From: an uncultured virus (IMG/VR IMGVR_UViG_3300044653_000122)
Lineage: Duplodnaviria; Heunggongvirae; Uroviricota; Caudoviricetes
Length of the DNA stretch: 64,000 nt
IMG/VR virus record: IMGVR_UViG_3300044653_000122
Direction: 5' to 3' (one strand)
Both the position numbers and the translations under genes were made by a program. The notes beneath the pieces were generated by a model, which was not told the DNA's origin, did no database searches, and saw only the letters and a list, made by a program, of their open reading frames with translations. The first letter of the stretch is position 1; each line of letters starts with the position of its first letter. This document shows, piece by piece, positions 30,178 through 45,951 of the stretch.

Positions 30178-30181
30178 GTAG

Positions 30182-30403: not shown

Positions 30404-30436
30404 AAACCGGGGGAAGCTTTCCGCTTCCCCCATCTT

Positions 30437-31603: not shown

Positions 31604-31678
31604 TGTTTCGTCTTTCGGGGGTGCCAGCCCCTTCTTTCTCCGTTGCGCCCCGTCGAGAGAGTCTCGACTCCAGGGACG

Positions 31679-31966: not shown

Positions 31967-31983
31967 GTTGTTCACTACACCGG

Positions 31984-32058
31984 CGGCCCCGAAGGGATTC
32001 GAACCCTCGTTCTCCTACGTGACAGGCAGGCGTCCACTCCTGGCTGGACCGCGGGGCC
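31984..32058 (-). tRNA. tRNA-Asp(GTC)
   Basis: CCTGC-CTGTCAC-GTAGG. Confidence 0.9.
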
Positions 32059-32078
32059 ATTCATCGTCACTATCTGGT

Positions 32079-32733: not shown

Positions 32734-32760
32734 GACGTGATCTCCAGTTGAGGTTTGCAG

Positions 32761-32850
32761 CGGAGAGAGGCGGAATCGAACCGCGTACCCCTTTCGAGGT
32801 ACACTCGCTTAGCAGGCGAGCGGTCCCTGCCAGTGGACCAGCTACTCTCC
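32761..32850 (-). tRNA. tRNA-Ser(GCT), atypical acceptor/D region
   Basis: CTCGC-CTGCTAA-GCGAG, long variable arm. Confidence 0.82.
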
Positions 32851-32851
32851 A

Positions 32852-32940
32852 TGGCGGAAGGTGGAAGAGTCGAACTTCTACGGCTCATCACCGCACTCTG
32901 GTGTTCGAAGCCAGTCGCCACCCACGTAGCAGCACCTTCC
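32852..32940 (-). tRNA. tRNA-Ser(CGA), 8/4-type fold
   Basis: GGAAGGTG/CACCTTCC, T stem GAAG/CTTC, loop TTCGAAC, CCA. Confidence 0.8.
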
Positions 32941-32945
32941 AAGAT

Positions 32946-33407
32946 TCAGTACTCGTAACTGATGGAGTCCTTCGACAGCTTGATGTTGTACATCTTGCAC
33001 CATTCCTCGTTGCGAGGAGTGAAGGCGTAGCTGGTGAACAAATCCCAGCAGTCTTGCCGGAAGCTGCCGCCCTTCCTCTCCCGAAACCTCGACGGGACGC
33101 CCCGGAGGTGCTCATAGACCGAGCGAACATCGAGGCGCGGGACCATCTGTTCAGAGATGTTTAGCAGCCTCTCTGGTCCGGTGCCCGGATACAGCTCGTG
33201 TTCGAAAAGCGTGATGCCCACGCCTCCGAACATCCCTGAGCAGTAGAGAGTGGTCACCAAAGGCGTCGGTTCGATGAGGGCGAGCGCTCGCTCAAGATCC
33301 TCTCGTGGGATCTTTTTCCACTCATCAGCAAGCTTGATACGCTCGTTTGTTGACCACAGCTCCGCGTTCAGAGCCTTGAGCCATGCACGGTCTTCGTCGC
33401 TCAGCAC
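32946..33407 (-). CDS. hypothetical protein
   Basis: GTG 10 nt after GGTGTA motif. Confidence 0.65.
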   Translation of the reverse strand: MLSDEDRAWLKALNAELWSTNERIKLADEWKKIPREDLERALALIEPTPLVTTLYCSGMFGGVGITLFEHELYPGTGPERLLNISEQMVPRLDVRSVYEHLRGVPSRFRERKGGSFRQDCWDLFTSYAFTPRNEEWCKMYNIKLSKDSISYEY

Positions 33408-33425
33408 AACGGGGTATTACACCGG

Positions 33426-33498
33426 CACCCCTGGCCCGACTCGAACGGGCGACATTTCGTTTAGGAAACGAACGCTCTATCCACTGAGCTACAGGGGC
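33426..33498 (-). tRNA. tRNA-Arg(CCT)
   Basis: TTCGT-TTCCTAA-ACGAA. Confidence 0.9.
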
Positions 33499-33499
33499 A

Positions 33500-33578
33500 T
33501 GGGGTGACCGAGGGGATTCGAACCCCCGAATGCGAGAATCACAATCTCGTGCCTTAACCAGACTTGGCTACGGCCACC
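33500..33578 (-). tRNA. tRNA-His(GTG)
   Basis: G-1:C73, loop TTGTGAT, CCA. Confidence 0.92.
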
Positions 33579-33721
33579 ATGGTCTCAGCGTACTGAGCCT
33601 TCTTTGAATGTTCCCACGTGGCACGGCCCGTATGGGGAAACTGCACCCGCCCGCGCGCCAGCCGGATGCTTGATTGTGTGAGGCCCCTGGAGCTAGTTGA
33701 GCGCGCGGAGGCCAGAAGATG

Positions 33722-33849
33722 GGGGAATGTGCCGGGGTTAGCCGGACGCTTGTGAGGACCGCAGAGGTTGCGGGGCGCCTCTCCTCCCCTCTTGCGAGGG
33801 TTCTTGAGACGCCCGAGATGCGATCCTGGTTGAGCTGCGTCACATCCCC
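33722..33849 (-). ncRNA. module RNA 1 (shared module, no tRNA arms)
   Basis: CTCGGG..CCCCGC..ACAAGC inside GGGGATGTG/CACATTCCCC helix. Confidence 0.65.
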
Positions 33850-33872
33850 GTAAGGTGCTCAACCCTGTAAAC

Positions 33873-34006
33873 TGGAGGCGGGTCTTGGAGTCGAACCAAG
33901 CAAGCTTGTAAGCACGCGGAGTTTGCGGGGCCCCCGTGGAGGCCCGAGTGATGCGCGCTGTCGATTTCTCTTATGAGGAGAAGCGGGACCCACGTCCCTA
34001 CCCGCC
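33873..34006 (-). ncRNA. module RNA 2: tRNA shell (CAT loop, CCA) with module in variable arm
   Basis: GGCGGGT/ACCCGCC-T-CCA; TTCTC-CTCATAA-GAGAA. Confidence 0.8.
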
Positions 34007-34015
34007 ATGATATTT

Positions 34016-34151
34016 GAAGACACCCGAGGTGCAACCCTGGTCACGCCTTACGGCGAGCAGTGGGGATCGAACCCACATCCTTCGGTTTCACGTACCAACG
34101 CTCATCCAGTTGAGCTATGCTTGTTAGGGCTACGAGGTGCGGGGTGCCTTC
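34016..34151 (-). ncRNA. module RNA 3: module encloses D/anticodon(GTG)/T arms
   Basis: GAAGGCACCCCGC...CTCGGGTGTCTTC terminal helix. Confidence 0.8.
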
Positions 34152-34153
34152 AG

Positions 34154-34282
34154 AGCCGGATCCAGGAGTCGAACCTGGCGAGCTTGTTAGCGCGCTTTGG
34201 GGCGGGGTCCCCGTGGAGACCCGAGTAGTGCACGCTGTGGTTTTACCTGGGAAAGGTAGCGGGACCCACGTCCCTATCCGGC
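34154..34282 (-). ncRNA. module RNA 4: tRNA shell (TCC-like loop) with module in variable arm
   Basis: GCCGGAT/ATCCGGC acceptor, T arm. Confidence 0.8.
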
Positions 34283-34323
34283 ATGATCTCGAACTTGTCC
34301 TACTTCGAAGGCGAGGACTTGCC

Positions 34324-34438
34324 TGGGGGCGGACTCTGGAGTCGAACCAGAGGCTTGTGTGCACGTTGGGGTGCGGGGCCCCCGTAGAGGCCCGAGGAAA
34401 ACGCGCAGTGAAAGTGGGACCCACGTCCCAAGTCCGCC
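34324..34438 (-). ncRNA. module RNA 5: tRNA shell with CCA, module replaces the anticodon arm
   Basis: GGCGGAC/GTCCGCC-C-CCA. Confidence 0.8.
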
Positions 34439-34447
34439 GAAATGTTA

Positions 34448-34573
34448 GGCGACGCCCGAGTTGCAACCCTGGTGTGTGGTAGCAGCAGGAATCGAACCTG
34501 CCCTGTCTCGTTATCAGCGAGATGCTCAACCAGTGAGCTTTGCTTGTGAGGGTAGCGGGGGCGGGGCGCCGCC
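34448..34573 (-). ncRNA. module RNA 6: module encloses D/anticodon(GAT)/T arms
   Basis: GGCGGCGCCCCGC...CTCGGGCGTCGCC. Confidence 0.8.
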
Positions 34574-34575
34574 AG

Positions 34576-34708
34576 CGCCGGATGAAGGAGTCGAACCTTC
34601 CTAGCTTGTAAGCACGCGTGGTTGCGGGGTCCCCTAAGAGACCCGAGTGGTGCGCGCTGGGAATGGCTTCCTTAACAGGGAAGTGACCTCCCCGAGGTCT
34701 AATCCGGC
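34576..34708 (-). ncRNA. module RNA 7: tRNA shell (GTT loop) with module in variable arm
   Basis: GCCGGAT/ATCCGGC; CTTCC-CTGTTAA-GGAAG. Confidence 0.8.
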
Positions 34709-34717
34709 ATGATGTTA

Positions 34718-34844
34718 GGAGACGCCCGAGATGCAACCCTGTTGTGTGTGCAGCGGGTGTCGAAACCCGCAACCCACGGCTTGAGAGGCCGTTGCTCTAC
34801 CATTGAGCTATGCTTGTGAGGGCTGCGAGGGGCGGGGCGCCTCC
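34718..34844 (-). ncRNA. module RNA 8: module encloses D/anticodon(CTC)/T arms
   Basis: GGAGGCGCCCCGC...CTCGGGCGTCTCC. Confidence 0.8.
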
Positions 34845-34846
34845 AG

Positions 34847-34980
34847 GGCCGACTGTGGGAATCGAACCCACTATGCTTGTATGCGCGTTGTGGGGCGGGG
34901 TCCCCGTGGAGACCCGAGATGTACGCGCAGGTGAATTGCTTCCTGTTCAGGGAAGTGCCCAACCGGAGGGCTTAGTCGGC
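34847..34980 (-). ncRNA. module RNA 9: tRNA shell (GAA loop) with module in variable arm
   Basis: GCCGACT/AGTCGGC; CTTCC-CTGAACA-GGAAG. Confidence 0.8.
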
Positions 34981-35017
34981 GAAACGTACGAGACTGGAAC
35001 TACTGAGAGAAGATTTC

Positions 35018-35163
35018 GGTCACGCCCGAGATTGACGCCTGTGTGCTGTATGTTCACTTTCGATGTGAATGCCTTACCGTTAGGCTACATCTCCCGAAGG
35101 AGGTGATGGGACTCGAACCCACATTTTGTGCTTGTAAGGCGTCGTGCTTGGCGGGGCGCGACC
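35018..35163 (-). ncRNA. module RNA 10: module encloses a permuted tRNA (T arm, TTCG-capped acceptor, D arm, anticodon arm)
   Basis: GGTCGCGCCCCGC...CTCGGGCGTGACC. Confidence 0.8.
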
Positions 35164-35166
35164 TAG

Positions 35167-35311
35167 CTGGGGGTCTAGGATTCGAACCTAGAAGAGCTTG
35201 TTTGAACCGCTTTTTGGCGGGGTCCCCGTGGAGACCCGAGATGCGATCCAGGGTTTTGCTTTCGCAACGTGGTTTGGAATCACGCTGGCCTGCCATCGGC
35301 CAATACCCCCA
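35167..35311 (-). ncRNA. module RNA 11: tRNA shell (CCA loop) with module in variable arm
   Basis: TGGGGGT/ACCCCCA acceptor, T arm. Confidence 0.8.
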
Positions 35312-35390
35312 ATGGGTTGTCGAGGAGTGACCCCGACGAGGAGGAGAGGTTACGTCTTGCCGGAACGACCGTCAAGATTTTTTGTGGGGG

Positions 35391-35972
35391 TCAGATTCGA
35401 ATCGTACCCCCGGGGCTGACCTGGTAGGACAGGCGCGCCCCCTTGCCGACGAACTCCTTGACGGAGTGTGCAACGTAAGCGGAAACGACCGCGAGGAAGG
35501 GGAGGTGCTCCCCGTTCTCACACGTCGGAGCGCCCTGGGCGTCCTCTTCGTCGATGACGAACGACTCGTCCCACGCTACGCGGCCGAAGTTGCCGTTGGC
35601 ATCCACAGCCGCATGAAGGCAGGGGATCTTGGCTTTGCGGACGAAGGTCTGGATGACACGCCGAGAGGCAGCGTTGTCCAGACAATCGACCACAAGGTCC
35701 GCTCCCCCGAGGAGCTGTTCAGCGTTGTCCGAAACGAGCTTGTTCGAGTTCGTCTGGAGCTTGACGCCGAAGAGGAGATCCATCGCTCCGGCGAGAGCCA
35801 GCACCTTCGGCTTACCTACGCCCGGCTTGCCGTGGAACTGGCTCTGGATGTTCTTCGCCTCCACACGGTCGAAGTCGATGACCTTGAGGGCCGCCTTGAC
35901 GTTGCGGAGGAGCATGACGGCCTGGGACCCGAGGGCACCCACGCCGACGAATACGATGGTCTTCATCTTCAT
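35391..35972 (-). CDS. ThiF/E1-like adenylyltransferase
   Basis: GVGALGS, IDFDRVEAKNIQSQ, GKPKV, VVDCLDN; candidate Cys in PTCE. Confidence 0.9.
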   Translation of the reverse strand: MKMKTIVFVGVGALGSQAVMLLRNVKAALKVIDFDRVEAKNIQSQFHGKPGVGKPKVLALAGAMDLLFGVKLQTNSNKLVSDNAEQLLGGADLVVDCLDNAASRRVIQTFVRKAKIPCLHAAVDANGNFGRVAWDESFVIDEEDAQGAPTCENGEHLPFLAVVSAYVAHSVKEFVGKGARLSYQVSPGGTIRI

Positions 35973-36033
35973 CTCCCTCGGGACATCACCAAGCCCCTCT
36001 GGTTACTACACCAGAGGGGCCAGCGAAATCCTC

Positions 36034-36306
36034 TCAACCATAGGCAGTCTTGGGTCTCACGAAAATGCGGTTGTGGTCCGCCTGCCCCGGCGCCGGATTG
36101 GCCGGCGCGTCGAAGCGGTCGACCATGAAGTTCGTGAGGTCGACGTTGGGATCCGCCACCACACCGGGAACGGATCCCGTGCGGATGGCCTCGGCCGCCC
36201 ACCCCTTGATGTCACCGTCCCCCGCCTGGTAGTGCACGGGGTCCGGCAGCTCGAAGTTCTGCCCGTTGTAGGTGATGTTCACCCGGGCCTCGTGAGGCTG
36301 GATCAT
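36034..36306 (-). CDS. putative ubiquitin-like protein
   Basis: 90 aa, beta-grasp-like pattern, ends RIFVRPKTAYG; lies between JAB and E1. Confidence 0.65.
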   Translation of the reverse strand: MIQPHEARVNITYNGQNFELPDPVHYQAGDGDIKGWAAEAIRTGSVPGVVADPNVDLTNFMVDRFDAPANPAPGQADHNRIFVRPKTAYG

Positions 36307-36710
36307 GGCTGCATCTCCTTCTGATCTGTTACCGGCTGCGAGTGCCGGCGAAGTTCCTCGACCCAAGGCGGCTCGTCGTAGACCTTCGAGACGCTGTAGT
36401 CGTACCGATTGGGACCGACCCACCGGACCACCACAAGACGGTCCATGCTGGCGATCCACCACTTGTATCGTCGCCCGAGCCCGCTCTCGCAGGCCTCGTA
36501 CGTCGTGATGTCTTCCCAAGAAGGGCCCGGCCAACCGAGGCCAGGGTGGCTGTGCGCCTGCCCCGACATGGTGAGCCGGTTCTCCCAGTAGACATCCCAG
36601 AGCTTGGGGCTGTCAGGGAGCGCGACGACATTTCGGTTGGTTGGCAGGTGCCAGTAAACAACCTGCGTCTCATCGGACCCGATGACAACCCCTGCTTCGC
36701 GCATGTTCAT
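36303..36710 (-). CDS. JAB/JAMM metallo-isopeptidase
   Basis: N-terminal E (REAG), HSHP....PSWED. Confidence 0.85.
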   Translation of the reverse strand: MNMREAGVVIGSDETQVVYWHLPTNRNVVALPDSPKLWDVYWENRLTMSGQAHSHPGLGWPGPSWEDITTYEACESGLGRRYKWWIASMDRLVVVRWVGPNRYDYSVSKVYDEPPWVEELRRHSQPVTDQKEMQP

Positions 36711-36719
36711 GTCGACCCC

Positions 36720-37697
36720 CTAATCCTCGAAGTCATCATGGTCCTCGAAGTCATCGTCTCCCGCGTGACGGTTGACGACGAGCACGCGATCCCGATCGGC
36801 TGCGAGGATGACGGCCGGCAGAGATTCCAGGGTGAACTTGGTGTCACCCACCTCTCCAGTCGCGTGATTGACGAGACAGATGCCTGCGTTGATGATCCGA
36901 AGAGTCGTCGAATCGCAGGTGGAAACGTACTGGCGACGTGCGAGACGGTAGGTCACGACCATCTCGTTGCGTTGGTACCCCTTCTTGTGGTCGAGGTACT
37001 CGGCCCCGCCGAGCGCCAGAGCAGCGCGAGCCGCTTGGGCGAAGTCGAGTTGGGCCATGGCACGACGACCCTCCCCCGTGCCAAGCTGCTGAGCGATCTG
37101 TTGTCTTCGCTCTTCAGCCAGCCGCTTGGCCTCTTCCTCCTGACGCCTGCGCTCCTCTACGGCACGCCGACGCTCGGTCTCCGTCCGCATGAACGACTCC
37201 ATGCGGAAGGCTGCATCGAGAGCAGGGAGGACGTTGGGAATGCCTCCAACGTCAGCCTTGCGGTCGAAATAGGCCTGGAGAACATCCGTTTCCGGACCCA
37301 AAGGAAAGTCCTGCGTCTTGTAGACGAGGGGACCATCCTCGAAGGGGCGACCCGCCACGACCCGCACAAAGCGATCGAGGCTGGGGTCGAGAAGAGCAAC
37401 CGGCTCGGAGTAGCCGATGATCTTTGCAGGGTCGGGATCCACGTGCACAGCGTCGGGAACGATGCGGTCCCCCACGAGGTACCCACGGATCTCATGACCG
37501 AGAATATCGGTTTGGGGGTCCGAAGCCTTGTCCAGGAACGCCTTGCGCCCGTTGAGCTTGAAGTTGTACCAGCCGACCTCCTTCGGAAGTCGACCGTCAA
37601 TGTTCCAGGTACGAGCACCCGACCGGAGATCCCTCCCTCCCAGCCAGGGCGAGACCAAGGCCTCATTGCCCGTCTGTAGAAGGTCTCTCCACGACAT
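36720..37697 (-). CDS. hypothetical protein with possible C-terminal E2-like domain
   Basis: coiled coil then beta-rich domain with AGICL..D.KFTLESL; operon context. Confidence 0.6.
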   Translation of the reverse strand: MSWRDLLQTGNEALVSPWLGGRDLRSGARTWNIDGRLPKEVGWYNFKLNGRKAFLDKASDPQTDILGHEIRGYLVGDRIVPDAVHVDPDPAKIIGYSEPVALLDPSLDRFVRVVAGRPFEDGPLVYKTQDFPLGPETDVLQAYFDRKADVGGIPNVLPALDAAFRMESFMRTETERRRAVEERRRQEEEAKRLAEERRQQIAQQLGTGEGRRAMAQLDFAQAARAALALGGAEYLDHKKGYQRNEMVVTYRLARRQYVSTCDSTTLRIINAGICLVNHATGEVGDTKFTLESLPAVILAADRDRVLVVNRHAGDDDFEDHDDFED

Positions 37698-37757
37698 GCT
37701 CATCTCCATCTGGTGGAGGAAAAACCCCACCACCTTCACAGATGGTGGGGTTCCCTG

Positions 37758-39683
37758 TTACGCCGCCTTCGACGACACGGGCACGGAAGCCCAGGCCGGC
37801 TTCTTGAGCAGGTCCGTCTTGAGGATCGTGTCCACGAGGGTCACGCGCGGAACTGCCACCTGCCCGGTGGCCTTGCCGACCGGAGTCGCCGCGATCAGGG
37901 CGCGGATCGTACGCGGGATGGCGTACGGGTCCGCTGCACCTCCGGTTGCGACCTGACCGAAGATACGCTGATCGACCGAGAAGCACGGGATGCCGAGGAC
38001 AGCAGCCGCGTTGGGGACGCACTTGTAGTTCTCGCCCTGGAGTTCGAGGAACCCGAACGCCACGGGGTTGAGCTTCGAGTCGCGGATGGCCGCCACGAGA
38101 CCGTGAGTCTCGCGCTGACCACCGTCACCAACCCAGACCATGATGCAGTCCTCGTCCGGTGCCGGCTTACGCCGGTCCGTGAGCGCCGAACGAACACCCG
38201 CGCTGTGGTCGGTCCCACCCCCTGCGGCGATACCGCGGAAGGCGTTCTCGACGCCAGCCTTGCTCGCGTGCTTGATCTCAACGACACGGCCCGCCGTGTT
38301 GAAGACCACCGTCACCGTCTTGTCCAGGGGGAAGCCCTGGAGGAACTGCGCGATGTAGGTCATCGACGCCTGGATCGACGCGCTCATCGAGCCCGAGATG
38401 TCGATGATGAAGTACACGAAAAGGCCCTTGATGACCTCCGCCACCTGCTTCTGGAGCGCGGTGTCGGCAGCCTGCTGGAGCTTATCCTTGCCCTCCTTCG
38501 ACTTCATGCGGAGCGCGATGTTGGCCGCCCGCATGTTCTCGGCTTCCCGAAGAGCCTTGTCGAGGCGCTCACGGTAGGTCTGGACCTGGAGCAGACCCAG
38601 CTCTTCGATCGTCGGAGCCAGGTTGATCATCTCCGCGTTGGAGATGCACCCCGACTCGATCGCGGCACCCATGATCGCCCTCGTGAGGCCGACACCCTTC
38701 GGCAACATGGCCGAGAGGCGGTTCCACTTCGGGCGGTCCTTGACGACACGTTCGCAGACCTGCTCCTCGGTCAGGCCGTCCCACGTCTCCGCGGCAGCGA
38801 CCTTCTCGTTGAGAGCGAGCTTGCGACGGCCGTCGCTGGACTGCACCTGCTTCCACCGAAGCGTCTGGTAGAACTTCGGCGTGAGCGGGACATACCGAGC
38901 CTGGCAGGCGAGGGAGATGACACTCCAACGCGCACCCGACTTGATGAGCCCTTCGAGCAGCTTGGGGTTACGCTCGCGGTAGGCGAGCCAGCGGTTCACC
39001 GCCTTGGGCCAGCGACCCAGCTCCGGGCGCCGAGCGGACTTGCCAAAGCCCAGCTCGTGGTTGATCTTGGCGATCTGCGGCAGCGAGAGCAGCTCGCGAG
39101 CGCGGACCAGGAGCTTGGCGTTGAAGCCGCCCTTCTCCTTGTCGAGAAGGAACATGGCCTCGCCGACCTCACGGAAGTCGTCGTCGAAGAACGCAAGCTT
39201 GCCGTTCTCCACGACCTCCTGCCCGCAGCGGCTCTGCACGAGCATGAACGCAGCGAGCACGACCTTGAGGTCCCGGTGCTCCTGCCCGAATGCGAACGAA
39301 GCCCAACGGGCCGCGAACTCGTTGTCCAGCTTCCAGACCTCGGCGACCTGCTGGTAGAGCCAGACCGCGACCTCCGTGAAGAAGCCGGGCTTGCGATACT
39401 CGCCGACGCGAGTCGTACCGTTCATGATCGTCTTCTTGTCCGCCGCGAACTCGCCGGCCTTGACCCAGGCCGTCTTCTTGCCGACCTTGCTTCCGAGGTA
39501 AAGGACACGCTTACGCGCGTCTCCCTCGCCCTCGTACTTGGCCTTCGCGAAGGCCCACTTGACGCCGACCACCGAGGTCGGGTCCGGCGTGACCATGCCG
39601 GGGCGGTTGTGAACGCAGTGGTCCACGTAAGGCGTGAGCGACGCGATGATGCGCTCCGCCGGTCCAAGATTCTCGTTCGCCAT
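37758..39683 (-). CDS. Ro60/TROVE-like helical domain + vWA protein
   Basis: long helical region then IIDISGSM, GGTD, VGDG; start placed at MANENL after GGTGTA motif. Confidence 0.65.
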   Translation of the reverse strand: MANENLGPAERIIASLTPYVDHCVHNRPGMVTPDPTSVVGVKWAFAKAKYEGEGDARKRVLYLGSKVGKKTAWVKAGEFAADKKTIMNGTTRVGEYRKPGFFTEVAVWLYQQVAEVWKLDNEFAARWASFAFGQEHRDLKVVLAAFMLVQSRCGQEVVENGKLAFFDDDFREVGEAMFLLDKEKGGFNAKLLVRARELLSLPQIAKINHELGFGKSARRPELGRWPKAVNRWLAYRERNPKLLEGLIKSGARWSVISLACQARYVPLTPKFYQTLRWKQVQSSDGRRKLALNEKVAAAETWDGLTEEQVCERVVKDRPKWNRLSAMLPKGVGLTRAIMGAAIESGCISNAEMINLAPTIEELGLLQVQTYRERLDKALREAENMRAANIALRMKSKEGKDKLQQAADTALQKQVAEVIKGLFVYFIIDISGSMSASIQASMTYIAQFLQGFPLDKTVTVVFNTAGRVVEIKHASKAGVENAFRGIAAGGGTDHSAGVRSALTDRRKPAPDEDCIMVWVGDGGQRETHGLVAAIRDSKLNPVAFGFLELQGENYKCVPNAAAVLGIPCFSVDQRIFGQVATGGAADPYAIPRTIRALIAATPVGKATGQVAVPRVTLVDTILKTDLLKKPAWASVPVSSKAA

Positions 39684-39801
39684 GTTCTGATCCGATCTCG
39701 GCGACACACCTTCGCCGTTTCCTAGTAATACACCGCCGTGGTGCGGGATCCCCGAAGAGATCCGAGATGGCGATGCAGAGGTCCCGAGGAAGCCGGGAAC
39801 C

Positions 39802-39878
39802 TGGTCGGGGAGGGGGGATTCGAACCCCCAACAACGAGCACCCAAAGCTCGTGCACTACCGGGTTGTGCTACCCCCCG
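39802..39878 (-). tRNA. tRNA-Pro(TGG)
   Basis: CGAGC-TTTGGGT-GCTCG, CCA. Confidence 0.92.
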
Positions 39879-39905
39879 AAGTTCTTCTTGTGGACCGAGC
39901 AGGAC

Positions 39906-40175
39906 ATGGATCCGCTCACGCCCCGCGTCGTCCGCCGCTACCTTGCCTTCAAACACCAGCCGAAGGAAACCAAGGAACACAAAGTGGAACGGGTACGGGA
40001 CCTCATCCGCCAGCACACCGGCCTCTCGAAGGGTCAGGCGGAAGCCATCGCCGACGCCCATGTCCGAGGACGTGAGGTCGAGCGGTTGGCCATCCAGAAG
40101 TCCTGGCCCATCGAGCACGGGGCCATCAAAGGCCCGTCCGGTACGCTGGAGCTGTCGAAGCTACCGAAAGATTGA
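39906..40175 (+). CDS. hypothetical protein (MDPLTPRVVRRY N-terminus)
   Basis: shared N-terminal motif; TCTTGT upstream. Confidence 0.65.
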   Translation: MDPLTPRVVRRYLAFKHQPKETKEHKVERVRDLIRQHTGLSKGQAEAIADAHVRGREVERLAIQKSWPIEHGAIKGPSGTLELSKLPKD

Positions 40176-40176
40176 A

Positions 40177-40362
40177 GGATCGCGCCCGAGGTTGTGCAGC
40201 AGTTGTGCCTTTTCAGGACAGCTTCCATTTGCTGTTGCGTCTTCCATTCCGCCACTGGCCCATTTTGGGGGTCCGAAGACCCTTGTGGGCCAGCCTGGAC
40301 TCGAACCAGGAATCCCCTTGCGGGGTTGCTTGTGTGCTTCACAGGATTGCGGGGCGCGATCC
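40177..40362 (-). ncRNA. module RNA 12: module encloses a permuted tRNA
   Basis: GGATCGCGCCCCGC..ACAAGC..T arm..CTGGCCC/GGGCCAG..D arm..CTCGGGCGCGATCC. Confidence 0.8.
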
Positions 40363-40364
40363 AG

Positions 40365-40438
40365 TAGGCATGGGGGGAGTTGAACCCACGACCTCAGCCT
40401 TATCAGGGCTGCGCTCTAACCAACTGAGCTACATGCCT
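40365..40438 (-). tRNA. tRNA-Ile(GAT)
   Basis: CAGCC-CTGATAA-GGCTG. Confidence 0.92.
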
Positions 40439-40460
40439 GTGTAAACAACCTTTCGGCCAG

Positions 40461-40532
40461 TTGGCGCGAGAGGGATTGAACCTCCGACCTTCCCCGTGTC
40501 AGGGGGATGCTCTACCACTGAGCTACGCGCCA
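40461..40532 (-). tRNA. tRNA-Val(GAC)
   Basis: TCCCC-CTGACAC-GGGGA. Confidence 0.92.
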
Positions 40533-40545
40533 ATGAATATCCGAG

Positions 40546-40618
40546 TGGGCCACGTCGGGCTCGAACCGACGACAACCGCCTTGTAAGGGCAGTGCTCTAC
40601 CAACTGAGCTAGCGGCCC
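40546..40618 (-). tRNA. tRNA-Val(TAC)
   Basis: CTGCC-CTTACAA-GGCGG. Confidence 0.92.
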
Positions 40619-40625
40619 GTTCTTG

Positions 40626-40890
40626 TGGGGTCGGCGGGATTCGAACCCGCGTGGATCTCGCAAAGCTGTCGTTTAGGAAACGCGCTTCCCTCACTTGGCA
40701 GTATCGGCCAGACCCCCATGAGTTACCCCATGGGGCAAGTTCCGGTGCATCCGCAACCTTTAACAGCAATTCGACGAGGTAGAGGTCCACCCGAGCAACA
40801 CCCTGTGGACGTGTGCCTCGTCTACTCCGAGAACCCCCTTGCGGGGTACCGTTCCGTTTTACGATCGCCTATCCGCTAGACTACGACCCC
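40626..40890 (-). ncRNA. 265-nt tRNA-shell RNA with large structured insert
   Basis: GGGGTCG/CGACCCC-A, D arm and T arm; about 190 nt replace the anticodon loop. Confidence 0.75.
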
Positions 40891-40918
40891 AAGATTAAGA
40901 TGCGTCAAGACAACCCGC

Positions 40919-41338
40919 TCAACGCGCATCAGTAGGCCCGAGAGGGTTTGAACCTCCGACTTCCTCCGTGTGAAGGAGGCGCTCTACCGCTGAGCTACAG
41001 GCCTGTGTTTCGAGTTCTTCAGGGACTTCAATTGGAGGGGGTTCCTCCTTTTTCCTCAGAAAGATAAGTCCCTCTCCGTCCACCCAGGTCATTGGGGCGA
41101 TGAAAGCCCCATCAAGGGAGGCCCGGTACGTCGCGCAATTCGCCAAGAACTCGGGAACGCGTGGTACCCTGGGCAGGGGGTCCATTTTGTCCGGCAGGAG
41201 CCCCCACAGCTCGGGAACGAACCAGCAGAGATTATGCCCCTCAGCATCCCGGTGCTTGCGGATGCCCGTACGGAGCTTCACCACCTCCGCGATGAGTGCC
41301 TCACGGTCCATGGCCTCTAGGTCGAGATCCAGCTCCAT
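40919..41338 (-). CDS. hypothetical protein (3' end reads through tRNA-Val)
   Basis: ATG 12 nt after GGTGTA motif. Confidence 0.6.
   Translation of the reverse strand: MELDLDLEAMDREALIAEVVKLRTGIRKHRDAEGHNLCWFVPELWGLLPDKMDPLPRVPRVPEFLANCATYRASLDGAFIAPMTWVDGEGLIFLRKKEEPPPIEVPEELETQACSSAVERLLHTEEVGGSNPLGPTDAR
40933..41004 (-). tRNA. tRNA-Val(CAC)
   Basis: CCTCC-TTCACAC-GGAGG. Confidence 0.9.
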
Positions 41339-41363
41339 GGGTTCTCTTTTTACACCGTGGCGA

Positions 41364-41440
41364 TGGTGCCAACGGCGGGATTCGAACCCGCACTGCCCCG
41401 TGTCTGAAACGGGTTACTCTGCCAGTTGGATTACGTTGGC
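41364..41440 (-). tRNA. tRNA-Leu(CAG), short variable loop
   Basis: CCCGT-TTCAGAC-ACGGG, CCA. Confidence 0.85.
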
Positions 41441-41443
41441 GTT

Positions 41444-41520
41444 TGGTCGGCGTGAGAGGATTCGAACCTCCGACCTTCTGCTCCCGAAGCAGACGCGCTA
41501 CCAGACTGCGCTACACGCCG
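41444..41520 (-). tRNA. tRNA-Pro(CGG)
   Basis: TCTGC-TTCGGGA-GCAGA, CCA. Confidence 0.93.
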
Positions 41521-41570
41521 ATGACGACCGGATGAGACAGCGGGGCCGGTCTTCCCTTCTTTGCTGTCTT

Positions 41571-41647
41571 TGGGGTCAGGGGTAGGATTTGAACCTACGG
41601 CCTTGAGCTTATGAGGCTCACGAGCTACCAGACTGCTCCACCCTGAC
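41571..41647 (-). tRNA. tRNA-Met(CAT)
   Basis: TGAGC-CTCATAA-GCTCA, fMet-like D arm, CCA. Confidence 0.88.
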
Positions 41648-41649
41648 AT

Positions 41650-41725
41650 TGGTAGCGGGCACAGGGAGTCGAACCCTGCCGTCCCAAGGTTATGAGCCTT
41701 GGATGAACCGCGTCACTCGCCCGCA
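41650..41725 (-). tRNA. tRNA-Met(CAT), 1:72 mismatch (initiator-like)
   Basis: CAAGG-CTCATAA-CCTTG, CCA. Confidence 0.82.
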
Positions 41726-41726
41726 G

Positions 41727-41799
41727 TGGTCAGGGTCGGAATCGGACCGACGACACCCCGCTCTTCAGGCGGGTGCTCTACCATCTGAGCTACCTGACC
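41727..41799 (-). tRNA. tRNA-Phe(GAA)
   Basis: CCCGC-CTGAAGA-GCGGG. Confidence 0.9.
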
Positions 41800-41815
41800 G
41801 TTGTACATCTAGTAG

Positions 41816-41889
41816 TCGAGGTGACAGGATTTGAACCTGCGATCTTCGGTCCCCCAGACCGACGCTTTACCAGGCTAAGCTACACCTCG
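41816..41889 (-). tRNA. tRNA-Pro(GGG)
   Basis: TCGGT-CTGGGGG-ACCGA. Confidence 0.9.
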
Positions 41890-41941
41890 ATGTTGTTTGC
41901 CGCAAGGGGAACTTGTATCCGGTGTACTAAAGAGAGCGAAC

Positions 41942-42487
41942 ATGGACCCGGAAGACCTGCCCGCCGAAGAGGAAGACTTTCTCGAAGAGGCTCTCCCGTC
42001 CGAGGACAACCTTTCCCAGGACGACGAGGAAGACCCGTCGGAAGAGCTTTCCGATGAAGACCATGAGTCTGAGGCCGACGTTGCGCAACCCCTCGATGAG
42101 GAGTCCCTGGCCAAAGCTGTTGAGGCTTGGGCGGAGGTCATCCATCTCCCCATCCTTCAGCCCGAGGGACCACCTCCTCAGACCCGAGCCGACTGTCTTG
42201 AGGATGGCCCAAACAGCGCCCGCCCGTGCAGGTGGATCACCTGCAAGTGGTACCTGCCTCGGGTGGTTCTTGGCCAACCCCATTCCTGCGCTCTCGACGT
42301 CGCCGACCAGGGAGGGACAACTCTCGAAGTGGTCGGTGAGCTGATGGGCCTGACCCGAGAGAGGGTCCGGCAAATCGAGGCGAAAGCCTTCCGCCGCCTC
42401 AGGGTTAGGGACGGTATGTACGAGAGGAGCATCCTTCAGTCCTTCATCGAAGACACAAGCCACCATCGACGTGGCTTCGTCTATTAG
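41942..42487 (+). CDS. sigma-70 region 4 domain protein with acidic N-terminus
   Basis: TLEVVGELMGLTRERVRQIEAKAFRRLR; upstream Cys cluster. Confidence 0.85.
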   Translation: MDPEDLPAEEEDFLEEALPSEDNLSQDDEEDPSEELSDEDHESEADVAQPLDEESLAKAVEAWAEVIHLPILQPEGPPPQTRADCLEDGPNSARPCRWITCKWYLPRVVLGQPHSCALDVADQGGTTLEVVGELMGLTRERVRQIEAKAFRRLRVRDGMYERSILQSFIEDTSHHRRGFVY

Positions 42488-42498
42488 TGTCATCGGTT

Positions 42499-42573
42499 TG
42501 GTGACCCCTACGGGAATTGAACCCGTTTTCAGTGTTTGAAAGACACTGGTCCTACCATTAGATCGAAGGGGCC
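42499..42573 (-). tRNA. tRNA-Glu(TTC)
   Basis: AGTGT-CTTTCAA-ACACT, CCA. Confidence 0.9.
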
Positions 42574-42574
42574 T

Positions 42575-42650
42575 TGGCGTCCCGTGGGGGATTTGAACCC
42601 CCGTTGCTGCCGTGAGAGGGCAGCGTCCTTGGCCACTAGACGAACGGGAC
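42575..42650 (-). tRNA. tRNA-Glu(CTC)
   Basis: CTGCC-CTCTCAC-GGCAG, CCA. Confidence 0.92.
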
Positions 42651-42659
42651 GTGTCTCAG

Positions 42660-42731
42660 TGATCCCAACGGGATTCGAACCCGTGTCTCCAGGTTGAGAA
42701 CCTAGCTATCCTTCCAGTAGACGATGGGACC
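42660..42731 (-). tRNA. tRNA-Glu(CTC)
   Basis: CTAGG-TTCTCAA-CCTGG. Confidence 0.88.
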
Positions 42732-42860
42732 TTGGCAACTGTGCTGAGCGCTCAGCTTCACACGGATGAGAAGGTCCCCTTCGCACCCGTCAAGGGCTAC
42801 ACACCCAGGGCACGTTCCCCCGAGCGTCCAGTCGCTTCCCTTTGCTCCTCGCGAGAGCAG

Positions 42861-42933
42861 AGCCGGTGAGGAGAGTCGAACTCCTTTAGTCCTCGTTACG
42901 AGTGAGGCGCTCGTCCACACGAGCATCACCGGC
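42861..42933 (-). tRNA. tRNA-Thr(CGT)
   Basis: loop CTCGTAA. Confidence 0.85.
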
Positions 42934-42962
42934 ATTGATTGATGGACCATGTTGGCCCACAG

Positions 42963-43034
42963 CGTCCCGCCAAGGAGTCGAACCTTGCCCTTTCGGTTAA
43001 CAGCCGATTGCTCCGCCTCTTGAGCTTGCGAGAC
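42963..43034 (-). tRNA. tRNA-Asn(GTT)
   Basis: TCGG-CTGTTAA-CCGA. Confidence 0.87.
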
Positions 43035-43039
43035 ATTCG

Positions 43040-43120
43040 CTCCAGGGGCAGGACTCGAACCCACATAAGCTCCGGTAACAGCGGAGTGCACTACCTTGCT
43101 TGCGCTTGTGCTACCCTGGA
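43040..43120 (-). tRNA. tRNA-Asn(GTT), enlarged D loop
   Basis: CTCCG-CTGTTAC-CGGAG. Confidence 0.82.
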
Positions 43121-43433
43121 AAAAAATGAAAGGGCGGAGAGCTTTTCCCGTGAGGGAGTCCAGCCCCCCGCCCCTTCCACGAACTTACAGGAAGGGTGGC
43201 CACGTCTGCGCGAGTCGGTTTGGTCGTCCGACTTTTTGGGCTCCTCGTCTGATCACCCTCCCTCGCGGGCGATGTCAGGCTTGCCCCCGAGGGCTACCGG
43301 GGAGCGCGCGTTTCCGCTTAGGTTCCCCGAAGAGAGTTTGGGCGGCGACGATGGGGGGCGTACCGGCGCTACCCGGTGCCTTTCCACCTGTCCTGCTAGG
43401 TTGTCAAGGATCAGAGACCCGAGGGTCTCTGGG

Positions 43434-43505
43434 TTGGGGGAGGGGGATTTGAACCCCCATTGCCGGTTTCAGAAGCCGGAGTCCTGCCAGTTGGACGATC
43501 CCCCA
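43434..43505 (-). tRNA. tRNA-Gln(CTG)
   Basis: loop TTCTGAA. Confidence 0.85.
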
Positions 43506-43524
43506 GCGTACGAGCTGAGTTATG

Positions 43525-43600
43525 TGGTGAGCCCGGCAGGAATTGAACCTGCTCTGTCGGAGGGTAAGAACCTCCCGCTCTTCCGGTGAGCTACGGGCCC
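43525..43600 (-). tRNA. tRNA-Lys(CTT)
   Basis: GGAGG-TTCTTAC-CCTCC, CCA. Confidence 0.88.
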
Positions 43601-43624
43601 GAGAACCTTCTCTCGAAGGCTTCG

Positions 43625-43696
43625 TGGACCCGGGGGGACTTGAACCCCCAACCATCTGGTTAAAAGCCAGCAGCTCTGCCGTTGAGCTACGGGTCC
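43625..43696 (-). tRNA. tRNA-Lys(TTT)
   Basis: CTGG-CTTTTAA-CCAG. Confidence 0.9.
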
Positions 43697-43762
43697 TCCT
43701 TTCGTTTTGGTGCCCGCTTTCCGGGCTTGCTCTTGCGTTTCATGTCTTCCTCTTTCTCTTGG

Positions 43763-43849
43763 TGGTGCCGCCGTAGGGAATCGAACCCTCTAGCCATAAG
43801 GCCCCGCGTTTACAGCGCGAGTCTGAATCCCAGTCAGAACCCCGTCGGC
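43763..43849 (-). tRNA. tRNA-Tyr(GTA), atypical D arm
   Basis: CGCG-CTGTAAA-CGCG, long variable arm, CCA. Confidence 0.8.
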
Positions 43850-44085
43850 ATGCTTCAAGCCCGGGGTATCGGTTTTCCGACACCTCCCGGGCGACGCTTG
43901 CCAGTTTCTTCGTCCCCTTCTTTTGGATCCTTTCGACTCCCCCGTCAACTCCTAATTTGGGGTTCGTGTTCTTTTTTCTTTGGGGTCTACTATGTAGCTA
44001 CAGACACTTTTCGCGATCTTCCAAGTCACACGCAGGGCGGATCCCTAGCGCGGGAGTTGGGGGTCATGATTGACATTCCGAGGCC

Positions 44086-44170
44086 AGAAACGCCGAAGGC
44101 CGCTTACCCGGGGGAGGGAAGCGGCCTTCTTGGTGCCCTAGTTGGGCTTCCTAAAGAACCGCTTCCCTAC
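44086..44170 (-). promoter_or_regulatory. putative attenuator (terminator/antiterminator pair)
   Basis: GAAGGCCGCTT/AAGCGGCCTTC + GGCGTTTCT; upstream AGGGAAGCGGTT can pair with GGCCGCTTCCCT. Confidence 0.6.
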
Positions 44171-44349
44171 GTACCGACCTCCGGGCGCTCGAAGCGAATT
44201 TCGCGTACGGAGGTATTGGCAGGGGTCGACGTAGCGAGAAGGCTCGAATCCAATCCGAAATACCGCTTCATGGGCTGGGCGCACCACGCCGCTGGCAGGC
44301 TTTTCGCCTGCTGCTGCGTTGCTTGATGCTGGTGCGCCCTGAGTCTCAT
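44167..44349 (-). CDS. putative 60-aa leader peptide containing all 20 amino acids
   Basis: stop codon overlaps the antiterminator segment. Confidence 0.5.
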   Translation of the reverse strand: MRLRAHQHQATQQQAKSLPAAWCAQPMKRYFGLDSSLLATSTPANTSVREIRFERPEVGT

Positions 44350-44421
44350 GTCTGTGCGATTTCCGTTTGGAGTGCGCTCGGTCGTAGGGCCCAGAGGACA
44401 GGTCTGGGTACCTTCATGTGC

Positions 44422-44448
44422 AGTATATCGTCTTGGACGCGATTGCAA
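44422..44448 (-). promoter_or_regulatory. sigma70-like promoter heading the tRNA array
   Basis: TTGCAA-15 nt-TATACT (short spacer), A/T tracts upstream. Confidence 0.45.
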
Positions 44449-44503
44449 GAGAAAAAGTTCACCACCCCTCACTTTTTTTGAGGGGCCCCCATTTCCCGAA
44501 GAA

Positions 44504-45265
44504 TCACGGAGGGGTTTGCGAGACGGCCGGCTGGATCTGCGAGGAAGTAGGGTTAGGCGAATTGCCCGCCTGCACCTTGTGGAGTGCCCCTACGAAGGAG
44601 GTGTAGGTGGAGAAGACGGCCCCCCGTCCATAAAGAACGGAGGTCGGCTGAAACGCGCCCCAAGGACCCGTCACCGCCCCGACCACCTGTACTACACCAT
44701 TCACAAGGAAGGCGACGAAGCTCGGAAGCACCGTCCCGGTCGAATCCCAAAACAGCCGTAGCTGGAGGGGGACCCCAGCCGGGAGAGCCGATCCACTCGG
44801 AGCCCCGACGGCCTTCGTGATGCCGTTGACATCCGTCACGGTAAAGGAGGGCCGGTTGGAGGCATCGAGCCAGACGCCGATGTACGAGGTCGGCGTCCCC
44901 CCCGTTGGCGATGTAAGGAAACCGAGACCTTGAACCGTCCCTGCCACCCCCGTCGTCAAATCGACCTGGATCGCACCCATCGTCCCACCGAGCTGGGGAG
45001 ATGACCCGTTGCCGATGCCCAGCATCGGGCTCCGCGCGGTTGAGAGAAGGTCGTACTCCCCCCCACCTCGGACCTGCACGATCGCCCCAGGTAGGAGTTG
45101 GGTGACACGCCAGGGTCCGGGGGATGCCGCTTGCCCGAAGTTCGGACTCTCGCCAGGCCCGATGTTGGGTTGCACGCCCACCGTCGCGTACCCCGGGCCG
45201 TAGCCGTTGAAGCTCGCGTCGATGATGAGCCCGTTGGCTCCGATCATGAAAGGTCCGTCGGACAT
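44504..45265 (-). CDS. Gly/Thr-rich beta-type hypothetical protein (possible virion protein)
   Basis: amino-acid composition; AGGAG SD. Confidence 0.65.
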   Translation of the reverse strand: MSDGPFMIGANGLIIDASFNGYGPGYATVGVQPNIGPGESPNFGQAASPGPWRVTQLLPGAIVQVRGGGEYDLLSTARSPMLGIGNGSSPQLGGTMGAIQVDLTTGVAGTVQGLGFLTSPTGGTPTSYIGVWLDASNRPSFTVTDVNGITKAVGAPSGSALPAGVPLQLRLFWDSTGTVLPSFVAFLVNGVVQVVGAVTGPWGAFQPTSVLYGRGAVFSTYTSFVGALHKVQAGNSPNPTSSQIQPAVSQTPP

Positions 45266-45324
45266 GGGTTATGATCTCCTACGAGAGCAACCGCAAAAGC
45301 TCTTTTGCGGTTGCTCTTGACGGA

Positions 45325-45951
45325 ATGTATCCCTCGCGCGAAACGATCGACCCGCAAGTCAAGGCTATGTTGAAGACGGCCTCGGACGCGACGGGACCCT
45401 CCAAACTGTTCCAGTGCCAAATCTTCAACTCGCAGTGGGATCAGTTCGTCATGCACTGGGCCCCCATCATCTACGACTTTGTGGGTCACGCCCTCGGACC
45501 GTACGGGATGGAGCCGCTCCCAGAGATTCTTCCCATGTCCGATGGGGAACACTCTGCGGGTGCCACCGCCTCTTTCAGCCCGGGTACGGGTCAGGTTCGA
45601 CTGTCCGGCTCGGTCCACAACAAGGCCGGCCAGACGTTGGAGAAGCTCACCCACGAGTTTACCCACGGATCATTGGCCAAATTCCCCGAAGGCGATCCGT
45701 TCTACGAAGAGGGCTTCGTGGACTACTCGGTCTGGGTCATGGCGCACGCACCCATCTGGGAGCCTTTTCGCGATGAGATGATCGAGGCGGCTGCCTTCAA
45801 CATCAAGATTCGTCGCGAACGAGCCATGCTCGACTTGGCAGACTGGGACCGAAAGCGCTGGGCGGGGGGTCTCTACGCGAGTTTCTCCCGTGGCCCCTTC
45901 ATCATCGCCAGCTTGCGCCACCGCAAGAGCGAGAACAACTTTACCTGGTGA
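45325..45951 (+). CDS. HEXXH zincin-like protein
   Basis: LTHEFTH..FYEEG. Confidence 0.7.
   Translation: MYPSRETIDPQVKAMLKTASDATGPSKLFQCQIFNSQWDQFVMHWAPIIYDFVGHALGPYGMEPLPEILPMSDGEHSAGATASFSPGTGQVRLSGSVHNKAGQTLEKLTHEFTHGSLAKFPEGDPFYEEGFVDYSVWVMAHAPIWEPFRDEMIEAAAFNIKIRRERAMLDLADWDRKRWAGGLYASFSRGPFIIASLRHRKSENNFTW

Follow-up and report, generated by a model that had tools for sequence, protein, structure and literature searches.

A candidate transcription attenuator with a leader peptide of all 20 amino acids at the head of a phage tRNA array

Why do phages carry genes for transfer RNAs (tRNAs), and how is the expression of these genes timed? This long-standing question is raised by a 64,000-nucleotide (nt) stretch of DNA from an uncultured virus of the Caudoviricetes (IMG/VR record IMGVR_UViG_3300044653_000122), here called the window. 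On its minus strand, to which all window coordinates refer unless stated otherwise, an intergenic stretch of about 650 nt separates a gene for a protein of 253 amino acids from a long array of tRNA genes. A preliminary description of the sequence had proposed that this stretch holds an attenuator that senses the loss of any tRNA and switches on the tRNAs of the phage. The core of that idea passed all the computational tests that we ran, and one part of it, control of the whole tRNA array, now looks unlikely. We conclude, with a probability of roughly 0.6, that the element is a ribosome-mediated transcription attenuator, and that its leader peptide, which contains all 20 amino acids, times the overall speed of decoding. 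This estimate is built on features computed here: a short open reading frame (ORF), three complementary RNA segments, the conservation and co-variation of these segments, the conservation of the all-20 composition, and the presence of the leader in RNA libraries.

The leader ORF (44167..44349) has 60 sense codons followed by TAG and begins with ATG AGA CTC AGG. As had been stated from the sequence, it uses all 20 amino acids and 41 distinct codons, with AGA and AGG among the first four. Seven amino acids occur once only, glutamine is somewhat raised (6/60), and we found no run of codons for one amino acid in it. The earlier caution that codon diversity alone is not decisive was justified. Ten of the 958 start-to-stop ORFs of 38 to 70 codons in the window are complete, that is, contain all 20 amino acids, as do 2.8% of the 60-residue windows of 11 long ORFs, and a model of independent draws with the composition of the window predicts 7.5%. 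The 41 distinct codons are the maximum among 5,832 gene windows (mean, 30.5; standard deviation, 4.1). Taken singly, a complete ORF in the window is only suggestive, and chance is not negligible; it is the recurrence in relatives that makes the ORF more than chance.

Relatives were reached by several routes. The upstream protein has 22 relatives besides the product of the window itself, on contigs of up to 530 kb. Pattern scans made from the alignment of these proteins (A1) led to four loci, L001, L002, L003 and L004, with upstream proteins 72%, 43%, 35% and 44% identical to that of the window (the last on a 407-kb viral contig), in which the stretch from the gene to tRNA-Tyr has equal parts in equal order. 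A pattern scan for the tRNA-Gln gene returned 29 more loci, and in four of them (L038, L041, L046 and L047) a tRNA-Tyr gene heads the block with a leader in front of it. The upstream gene differs in these four loci, so the leader travels with the tRNAs. We also screened the 29 tRNA-Gln loci blindly for small complete ORFs, which gave 27 among 1,361 candidates. Most of the 27 run across or antisense to tRNA genes; the screen recovered the known leaders and added L049, whose leader heads a Thr-Gly-Tyr-Lys-Lys block, and L034, whose leader sits inside the tRNA array of an AT-richer phage. A complete ORF of 69 residues in L053 was set aside, as the hairpin layout is absent there.

The total is 11 DNA instances (the window, L001 to L004, L038, L041, L046, L047, L049 and L034), on contigs of 4.6 to 407 kb. 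The order is the same in the window and the 10 other loci: a promoter-like box, an ORF of 43 to 60 codons, a segment at its stop codon (R1), a small hairpin, a terminator-like hairpin made of two further segments (R2:R3), a tail and a tRNA block. The geometry of stop codon and hairpin, which the preliminary description had wanted looked for in related phages, hence recurs in 10 further loci. The leader stands at 7 of the 44 tRNA block heads of the 29 tRNA-Gln loci and belongs to some lineages but not to every tRNA-rich phage. Searches by other means added no leader. No match to the window came from the GenBank phage collection, the first scans of viral_contigs with protein patterns and DNA motifs were empty, and the A1 protein-pattern scan of genome_contigs found no relative. 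Hairpin-pattern scans returned 16 loci, consisting of the L038 and L046 contigs again and unrelated terminators, with no new leader among them. When a set of 5.8 billion proteins was searched with the leader and with a profile of the 11 leaders, two and four proteins came back, all known or identical to those of L047 and L049; gene callers thus rarely predicted the leader ORF (four proteins in all from this set). The tRNA-Lys and tRNA-Asn genes were too variable for the design of further retrieval patterns.

The orthologous ORFs in the 10 other loci have 43 to 59 codons, and nine of them are complete, so that all 20 amino acids are present in 10 of the 11 leaders (counted by script); L047 has 19 and lacks lysine. 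Tryptophan, tyrosine and aspartate each occur exactly once in all 11 leaders and an internal methionine exactly once in 10, and the position of the single tryptophan varies between lineages. The start codon is ATG in 10 leaders and GTG in L004. How often would completeness arise by chance? The exact probability runs from 0.9% at 43 residues to 7.5% at 60 with the composition of the window and from 6 to 36% with uniform composition, and 0.13 to 2.8% of real-gene windows are complete. To reduce bias, we confined the test to the six lineages found by synteny (L003, L002, L004, L041, L038/L046 and L047), leaving out the window, L001 and the finds of the all-20 screen, L049 and L034. Five of the six are complete, with P values of 3.3e-8 for the composition of the window, 2.9e-4 for uniform composition and 5.9e-11 for the empirical frequencies. 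The leaders share a central aromatic-x-Cys motif and a C-terminal P-E-x-G motif and are probably homologous; we therefore also simulated neutral drift from a complete ancestor. When the diverged positions were redrawn neutrally, 1 to 6% of the simulated leaders stayed complete per lineage, which gives a P value of 1.4e-6 for five of six. Selection appears to keep completeness itself, not a particular peptide, and this makes sense only if the ORF is translated.

Could the ORF simply encode a small protein and, with a terminator of its own, stand before the tRNAs by chance? Its position is conserved, a hairpin follows it, and the central cysteine and the P-E-x-G motif are fairly conserved. However, peptide identity between lineages is just 12 to 44% (closer pairs are the window and L001, with 83%, and L038 and L046, with 50%), while the switch at the nucleotide level is kept; only 0.13 to 0.2% of 43- to 44-residue windows of real genes contain all 20 amino acids; and the codons of P-E-x-G coincide with a conserved GGAGG and a hairpin. 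There is no Pfam match for the product, and a small protein gene would leave the antiterminator described below without a role. We give this explanation very little credence.

The second body of evidence for an attenuator comes from the RNA that follows the leader ORF. R1 (AGGGAAGCGGUUCUUUA; 44152..44168) shares the last two bases of the stop codon (44169..44167). R2 (GAAGGCCGCUUCCC; 44129..44116) is complementary to R1 and is at the same time the 5' arm of the terminator-like hairpin, which is 35 nt long (44095..44129; free energy [dG], -25.4 kcal/mol) and has R3 (44109..44095) as its other arm. The preliminary description had noted that the stop codon overlaps a segment complementary to this arm, and the coordinates of R1 and R2 bear this out. 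A small hairpin between them, GCCC-AACUA-GGGC (44135..44147), would form the tip of the antiterminator; at its site the relatives have, by eye, CGCG/CGCG (L003), GCGC/GCGC (L002), GAGUC/GACUC (L004) and CAUCU/AGAUG (L038). Across the entire 260-nt leader of the window, R2 has no better partner than R1 (14 pairs; dG, -21.9), and 1 of 200 shuffles was as good. With hairpins delineated by folding, the best partner of the terminator 5' arm within the upstream 75 to 100 nt overlaps or abuts the stop codon in nine of nine leaders. A fully automatic hairpin picker placed the best partner at the stop codon in 7 of 11 leaders; it took the antiterminator as the terminator in L041 and preferred other partners in L038, L046 and L034.

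The sequences of R1, R2 and R3 vary by lineage, and their complementarity is kept. In the order R1, R2 and R3, the paired segments read GGGAAGCGG, CCGCUUCCC and GGGUAAGCGG in the window; CCCGAGGC, GCCGCCUCGGG and CCCGAAGGCGGC in L002; GGGACGGCGC, GCGCCGUCCC and GACCGGCGC in L041; CCGGGUCCUG, GGGCCCGG and CCGGGCC in L049; and GGCCCGGUCUCU, GAGGCCGGGCG and CCCAGGCC in L047. MAFFT could not register the R1:R2 pairing across lineages and the RNAalifold result was uninformative, so for the antiterminator we compared the duplex energies of own and foreign segments instead. The R1 region pairs better with its own R2 than with that of any foreign lineage in 7 of the 11 leaders (the window, L001, L003, L002, L041, L047 and L049); the own duplex has a dG of -26.3 in L002, versus -17.2 for the best foreign one, and of -23.9 versus -16.0 in L049. 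For the terminator hairpin, which is strong in all 11 leaders (dG, -17 to -28), compensatory double changes, one or more per pair, are seen at 8 of the 11 predicted pairs in a plain alignment of the 11 sequences.

How would such a leader work? In the mechanism that we infer from the sequences, which comprises translation of the ORF, termination at the hairpin, a direction of the switch and a feedback loop, transcription would start at a promoter-like site near 44448..44422, and a ribosome would translate the 60 codons as RNA polymerase proceeds through R1, R2 and R3. With fast decoding, the ribosome would be at the stop codon in time to cover R1, R2 would pair with R3, and transcription would end before tRNA-Tyr. 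After a delay at any codon, or with no ribosome on the RNA, R1 would pair with R2 as the latter emerges, R3 would stay unpaired, and polymerase would enter the tRNA genes. With every amino acid and an unusually wide range of codons in it, the leader would time overall decoding capacity and would not sense a single amino acid. Once made, the phage tRNAs would speed up decoding, and the gate would close again.

Folding of the alternative structures, another check that the preliminary description had named, gave R1:R2 and R2:R3 as the two states. When the nascent transcript was folded up to the loop of the hairpin, before R3 is made, 7 to 14 bases of R2 paired with the stop-codon region in all 11 leaders. 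When the RNA was blocked through 12 nt past the stop codon to mimic a terminating ribosome, the terminator formed in nine of nine leaders. The stop codon lies 25 to 38 nt before the hairpin in all 11 leaders (37 nt in the window). In addition, GGAGG is found 5 to 8 nt before the stop codon in 6 of the 11 leaders and GGAG within 4 to 12 nt in 8, often paired with an upstream CCUCC. In the window, it is part of a hairpin in the final third of the ORF (ACCUCCG..CGGAGGU; 44177..44214), with GGAGG at 44182..44178, 8 nt before the stop codon. This sequence could hold the terminating ribosome on R1.

The logic might also be the reverse, with efficient translation opening the gate and stalling closing it, if an upstream segment sequestered R1 in the untranslated RNA. 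In the terminator-state fold, R1 indeed pairs with codons 36 to 43 of the ORF in the window, L001 and L004 and with codons 34 and 35 in L049, and this partner could play the part of segment 1 of the trp attenuator. This partner is not conserved, as R1 pairs with the 5' untranslated region (UTR) in L002, L038 and L041 and has no partner in L034, and a ribosome at the stop codon would still cover R1 in every leader. We found no conserved upstream protector hairpin sequestering R1, and the default without a ribosome should therefore be read-through. A reversed switch thus seems to us highly improbable, and we keep to an attenuator that opens when decoding is slow.

Several observations weigh against this attenuator, and the first group concerns the statistics and the pairing. 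The lineages are not fully independent, because the central aromatic-x-Cys motif is common to the leaders. The complementarity of R1 and R2 is weak or ambiguous in L004, L038, L046 and L034, where the own pairing is equal to or worse than a foreign one. The full-length minimum-energy fold without a ribosome is the terminator in eight leaders and the antiterminator in three, so that read-through would have to rest on the order of folding (that is, on kinetics), as it does in classical attenuators.

The second group concerns translation. The Shine-Dalgarno sequence, described as weak before, is weak in the window and in most leaders, with a clear GGAG at good spacing in L004 only, and GGAG-type sites precede 12 of the 39 crude long ORFs of the window. 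The codon adaptation of the leader is ordinary (23rd percentile), and rare codons are not enriched in it. Over long stretches, the ORFs of the window and L001 agree at all three codon positions, and therefore the RNA itself is constrained, not the peptide alone. Might the element then be a structured noncoding leader or a small RNA, regulated by a bound protein, tRNA or RNA, with a frame that is open incidentally in GC-rich DNA? The weak Shine-Dalgarno sequence would fit, as would the scarcity of the ORF among predicted proteins (the four in 5.8 billion). A 581-nt region folds far better than its shuffles (z, -5.05), and nucleotide conservation, third codon positions included, is above that of the neighbouring gene: the window and L001 are about 88% identical across 44410..44081 and about 68% in the flanking protein gene, and identity falls right after the tail. 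Moreover, in four relatives no stop codon interrupts the frame for a long way upstream of the ATG, so open frames come easily here. Yet if the frame were incidental, completeness would not have persisted in 10 of 11 diverged leaders, nor would the frame end beside R1 in every lineage. A one-codon, in-frame insertion or deletion between the window and L001 leaves the length of the ORF otherwise kept, and no Rfam family, T-box included, was found at Expect values (E) up to 1. We consider a noncoding element improbable.

The third group concerns the signals for the start and end of transcription. What had been called a sigma70-like promoter consists of TTGCAA, a 15-nt spacer and TATACT (44422..44448, read from the sequence). 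Both boxes are present; a consensus scan made no promoter call there because of the 15-nt spacer. By eye, relatives have a TTGACA/TTGCAC-like box at the equivalent place, and in L034 the scan tool called TTGACA-17-TATACT, which matches at 11 of 12 positions and precedes the leader ORF by about 40 nt. The terminator-like hairpin of the window is strong, but its tail (44086..44094, directly after the hairpin) is U-poor, with just UUU-C-U in GGCGUUUCU, and the consensus scan called no terminator in the window, L034 or L049. Directly after the hairpin, U-rich tails are present in L049 (UUUUUAGUUU), L034 (UUUUGUUUUUU) and L046 (UUUUUCGUU).

The poor U-tract of window-type leaders leads to another explanation, in which the leader is translated and selected for completeness but acts on Rho-type polarity, on cleavage or on the stability of a precursor of leader and tRNAs, with R1, R2 and R3 forming processing or stabilizing hairpins. 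A CAUUUC-like motif that follows the hairpin at a short distance in L003, L004 and L041, with CGUUUC as its counterpart in the window and L001, might mark a site of processing. A further, weak hint comes from RNA libraries. The runs that hold the stretch are soil metagenomes. In three soil metatranscriptome runs from three studies, contigs at least 99% identical to the window cover 44159..44384, 44165..44365 and 44215..44387, and a fourth contig, from a relative with 10 differences, bridges the end of the ORF and the hairpins and runs 59 nt beyond. Shortly after the stop codon, at 44159 and 44165, the contigs of two studies stop, while a DNA run continues. The near-coincident ends at 44384/44387 and 44159/44165 are at most a weak hint. 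Neither strand nor ends nor level can be read from such contigs, and DNA may be present in libraries of this kind, which counts against our reading; the contigs show the presence of the leader, no more. In the three RNA libraries, the stretch outside 44076..44387 had no cover, which is not evidence of absence. Against a role in polarity or processing stand the U-rich tails in L049, L034 and L046 and the complementarity of all three segments, which co-varies by lineage and is the mark of structures that exclude each other. We judge this explanation to be unlikely and return to transcription attenuation for what follows.

The last group of observations against an all-20 attenuator concerns the genes that it would control. 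The tRNA genes lie downstream on the same strand, as had been described: between 5548 and 43696, ARAGORN found 54 tRNAs and one transfer-messenger RNA (tmRNA), each of them on the minus strand. It missed the first tRNA after the leader, tRNA-Tyr(GUA) (43767..43849), about 240 nt past the tail. This gene has a weak Rfam tRNA-clan match (31.2 bits, below the cut-off) and, by eye, one A-G mismatch in the acceptor stem; it aligns with the first tRNA-Tyr of L001 to L004, with CUGUAAA and the T-loop invariant. It is followed by tRNA-Lys(UUU), tRNA-Lys(CUU) and tRNA-Gln(CUG) (43432..43696), which together with tRNA-Tyr form the block most plainly behind the leader, and then by Asn and Thr. The order Tyr-Lys-Lys-Gln is kept in L001 to L004, L041 and L046, and in L001 to L004 the array after the upstream gene opens with Tyr-Lys-Lys-Gln-Asn. 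After tRNA-Gln comes a second conserved unit (43132..43431 in the window, 1983..2328 in L001, and between tRNA-Gln and tRNA-Asn in L002 to L004). In the window and these four relatives, it consists of a hairpin, a promoter-like box (TTGACAA-YYTAG-AGGAC) and a conserved leader of about 230 to 270 nt. The leader has a conserved motif (CUCUCCUGG..UUCGUGGAAGGGGC) and a compensatory change (GUCGG/CCGAC versus GCCGG/CCGGC) and has no conserved frame. At the end of the unit, immediately in front of an Asn-like tRNA and tRNA-Asn, stands a strong terminator-like hairpin that has a U-run (43173..43132; dG, -29.6); the unit has no Rfam match. It may be a separate gate of another kind, possibly riboswitch-like, for the Asn-Thr-Glu block.

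Because a promoter-like box and a second leader ended by a terminator follow the first four tRNAs, the all-20 leader may govern only these four. In our model the regulated set would include at least Tyr, Lys(UUU), Lys(CUU) and Gln(CUG), and control of the whole array looks unlikely. A sensor of all 20 amino acids would be a poor fit for just four tRNAs; immediately behind the leader, the block holds Tyr, Lys and Gln tRNAs only. L047, the sole leader without lysine, is also the sole record in which no tRNA-Lys was found, a single case in a record estimated to be 55% complete. At the other 26 tRNA block heads of the window we found no further leader-ORF units. A complete ORF of 66 codons (32946..33146) ends 6 nt before tRNA-Ser(CGA) and was set aside, as there is no hairpin between them.

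How does the element compare with known systems? Leader attenuators of amino acid operons include trpL, hisL, leuL, thrL and pheL as well as the multivalent ilv leaders. In the classical attenuator, the antiterminator forms first, and the terminator wins only when the 5' strand of the antiterminator is occupied. The phage element shares with the trpL type a promoter-proximal short ORF, an antiterminator and a terminator-like hairpin with a common strand, and a stop codon placed for a ribosome to mask the antiterminator; this hairpin, too, is more stable than the antiterminator, and stalling would favour read-through. Unlike the trpL type, it lacks a regulatory run of codons for a single amino acid and contains every amino acid, most of the rare ones once; its ORF has 43 to 60 codons, versus about 14 to 32; it has no conserved protector (1:2) hairpin that we could find; and it is a phage element for which the controlled genes would be tRNAs.

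The pyrBI operon of Escherichia coli has a leader ORF (pyrL) of about 44 codons; there the translating ribosome runs into the terminator and is a physical block to it, and UTP-dependent pausing of the polymerase serves as the signal. As in pyrBI, the long phage ORF would report the distance between ribosome and polymerase and not the supply of one amino acid. Unlike in pyrBI, the ORF of the window stops 37 nt before the hairpin and an explicit antiterminator is present; the distance of 25 to 38 nt in all 11 leaders rules out a pyrBI-type attenuator. T-box riboswitches bind one uncharged tRNA directly and need no ORF. The phage leader would resemble them in sensing the status of tRNAs through antitermination in a leader, and an Rfam scan of 43000..45500 gave no T-box match at E up to 1. 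The ermC-type and vmlR leader-ORF attenuators respond to drug-bound ribosomes at particular peptide motifs. There, as proposed here, a ribosome stalled on the leader ORF for whatever reason remodels the leader and opens downstream genes; in contrast to them, the composition of the phage leader points to the supply of aminoacyl-tRNAs.

Why would a phage need such a sensor? We entertain, at a little under even odds, a more specific view, that of a "pangram" sensor, in which one ORF polls all 20 aminoacyl-tRNA pools by timing the ribosome against the polymerase. With it, large soil phages would switch replacement tRNAs on when host decoding is sabotaged, for example, by anticodon nucleases or host shut-off, and off on recovery. 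The replacements begin with Tyr, Lys and Gln, and Tyr and Lys are isotypes attacked by known anti-phage tRNases. Phage tRNAs have recently been shown to save infections from host defences that cleave tRNAs: the tRNA-Tyr of phage T5, expressed from a strong promoter, acts against retron-Eco7; tRNA-Lys counters PrrC (PMC11555353); and T5 tRNA-Lys, tRNA-Thr and tRNA-Asn act against AriB of PARIS (PMC12409363). Likewise, Tyr, Lys, Asn and Thr are among the tRNAs that open the array of this phage family. These two papers present the expression of such tRNAs as strong and constitutive, and their abstracts describe no sensing leader (PMC11555353, PMC12409363).

Our full-text literature searches found no published account of attenuators of tRNA genes or of leaders with all amino acids. 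If the pangram view is true, the element would be a first in two respects, as a gene switch known to read the global supply of tRNAs and as an attenuator known to act on tRNA genes. It would extend leader-peptide attenuation from amino acid synthesis to tRNA supply and from one amino acid to all of them, and it would make the measuring of host decoding capacity by a phage directly testable. The requirement that a leader contain every amino acid is a simple design principle, open to discovery by computation, and a compact natural sensor of translation capacity could serve as a part in synthetic biology.

The remaining parts of the locus lie upstream of the leader ORF. The upstream gene (253 residues; 44504..45265, with the stop at 44504) has no Pfam match. 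On its 3' side, a hairpin read from the sequence, CCCCUCA..UGAGGGG (44465..44485), is followed by UGAACUUUUU and probably ends the transcript of this gene; the terminator scan made no call there, and L001 has, by eye, UCUCGA..UCGAGA at the equivalent position. In the 5' UTR of the leader, a 17-nt hairpin (CCAGA-CCUGUCC-UCUGG; CCAGACCUGUCCUCUGG; 44391..44407) is identical, loop included, in the window, L001 and L003, where the flanking proteins are 35 to 72% identical. The identical loop suggests a specific binding or pausing site. The 17-letter motif had no match in a scan of viral_contigs and 23 in genome_contigs, which are apparently chance matches. The tRNA array also contains, on the other strand, a 196-residue ORF (41897..42487, plus strand) that matches Sigma-70 region 4 (E, 2e-9); a phage sigma-like factor of this kind could explain the poor fit of the local promoters to the sigma-70 consensus.

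The array itself has further features. Its tRNA genes are sorted by isotype into 27 loose blocks over 38 kb (5548..43849) with ORF-sized gaps between them, and there are runs of one isotype, such as five Arg in a row, four Gly and pairs of Ala. The array covers 19 amino acid types, and no tRNA-Cys was seen in the window. The tmRNA lies at 15673..16014, and a tRNA called with a 4-base anticodon lies at 14785..14863. Three tRNA-like elements on the minus strand (34750..34813, 34481..34544 and 43046..43115) are outside the ARAGORN list; they have Rfam tRNA scores of 45.4, 44.8 and 27.4 bits, anticodon loops that read CUC, GAU and GUU by eye, and truncated or odd acceptor ends. The first two have a repeated flank in common (..GCCCCGCCCC..CCCUCACAAGCA..). 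In L045, a 481-kb viral contig, ARAGORN called a suppressor-type tRNA with the anticodon UUA (near 663, oriented) beside Ala and Gln tRNAs. Finally, the spacer between tRNA-Tyr and tRNA-Lys (43686..43742) is highly conserved between the window and L001 (about 1621..1677); it holds a very basic mini-ORF, MKRKSKPGKRAPKRKEDP, with its stop codon inside the start of tRNA-Lys, and a hairpin, GCCCGG-AAAG-CGGGC.

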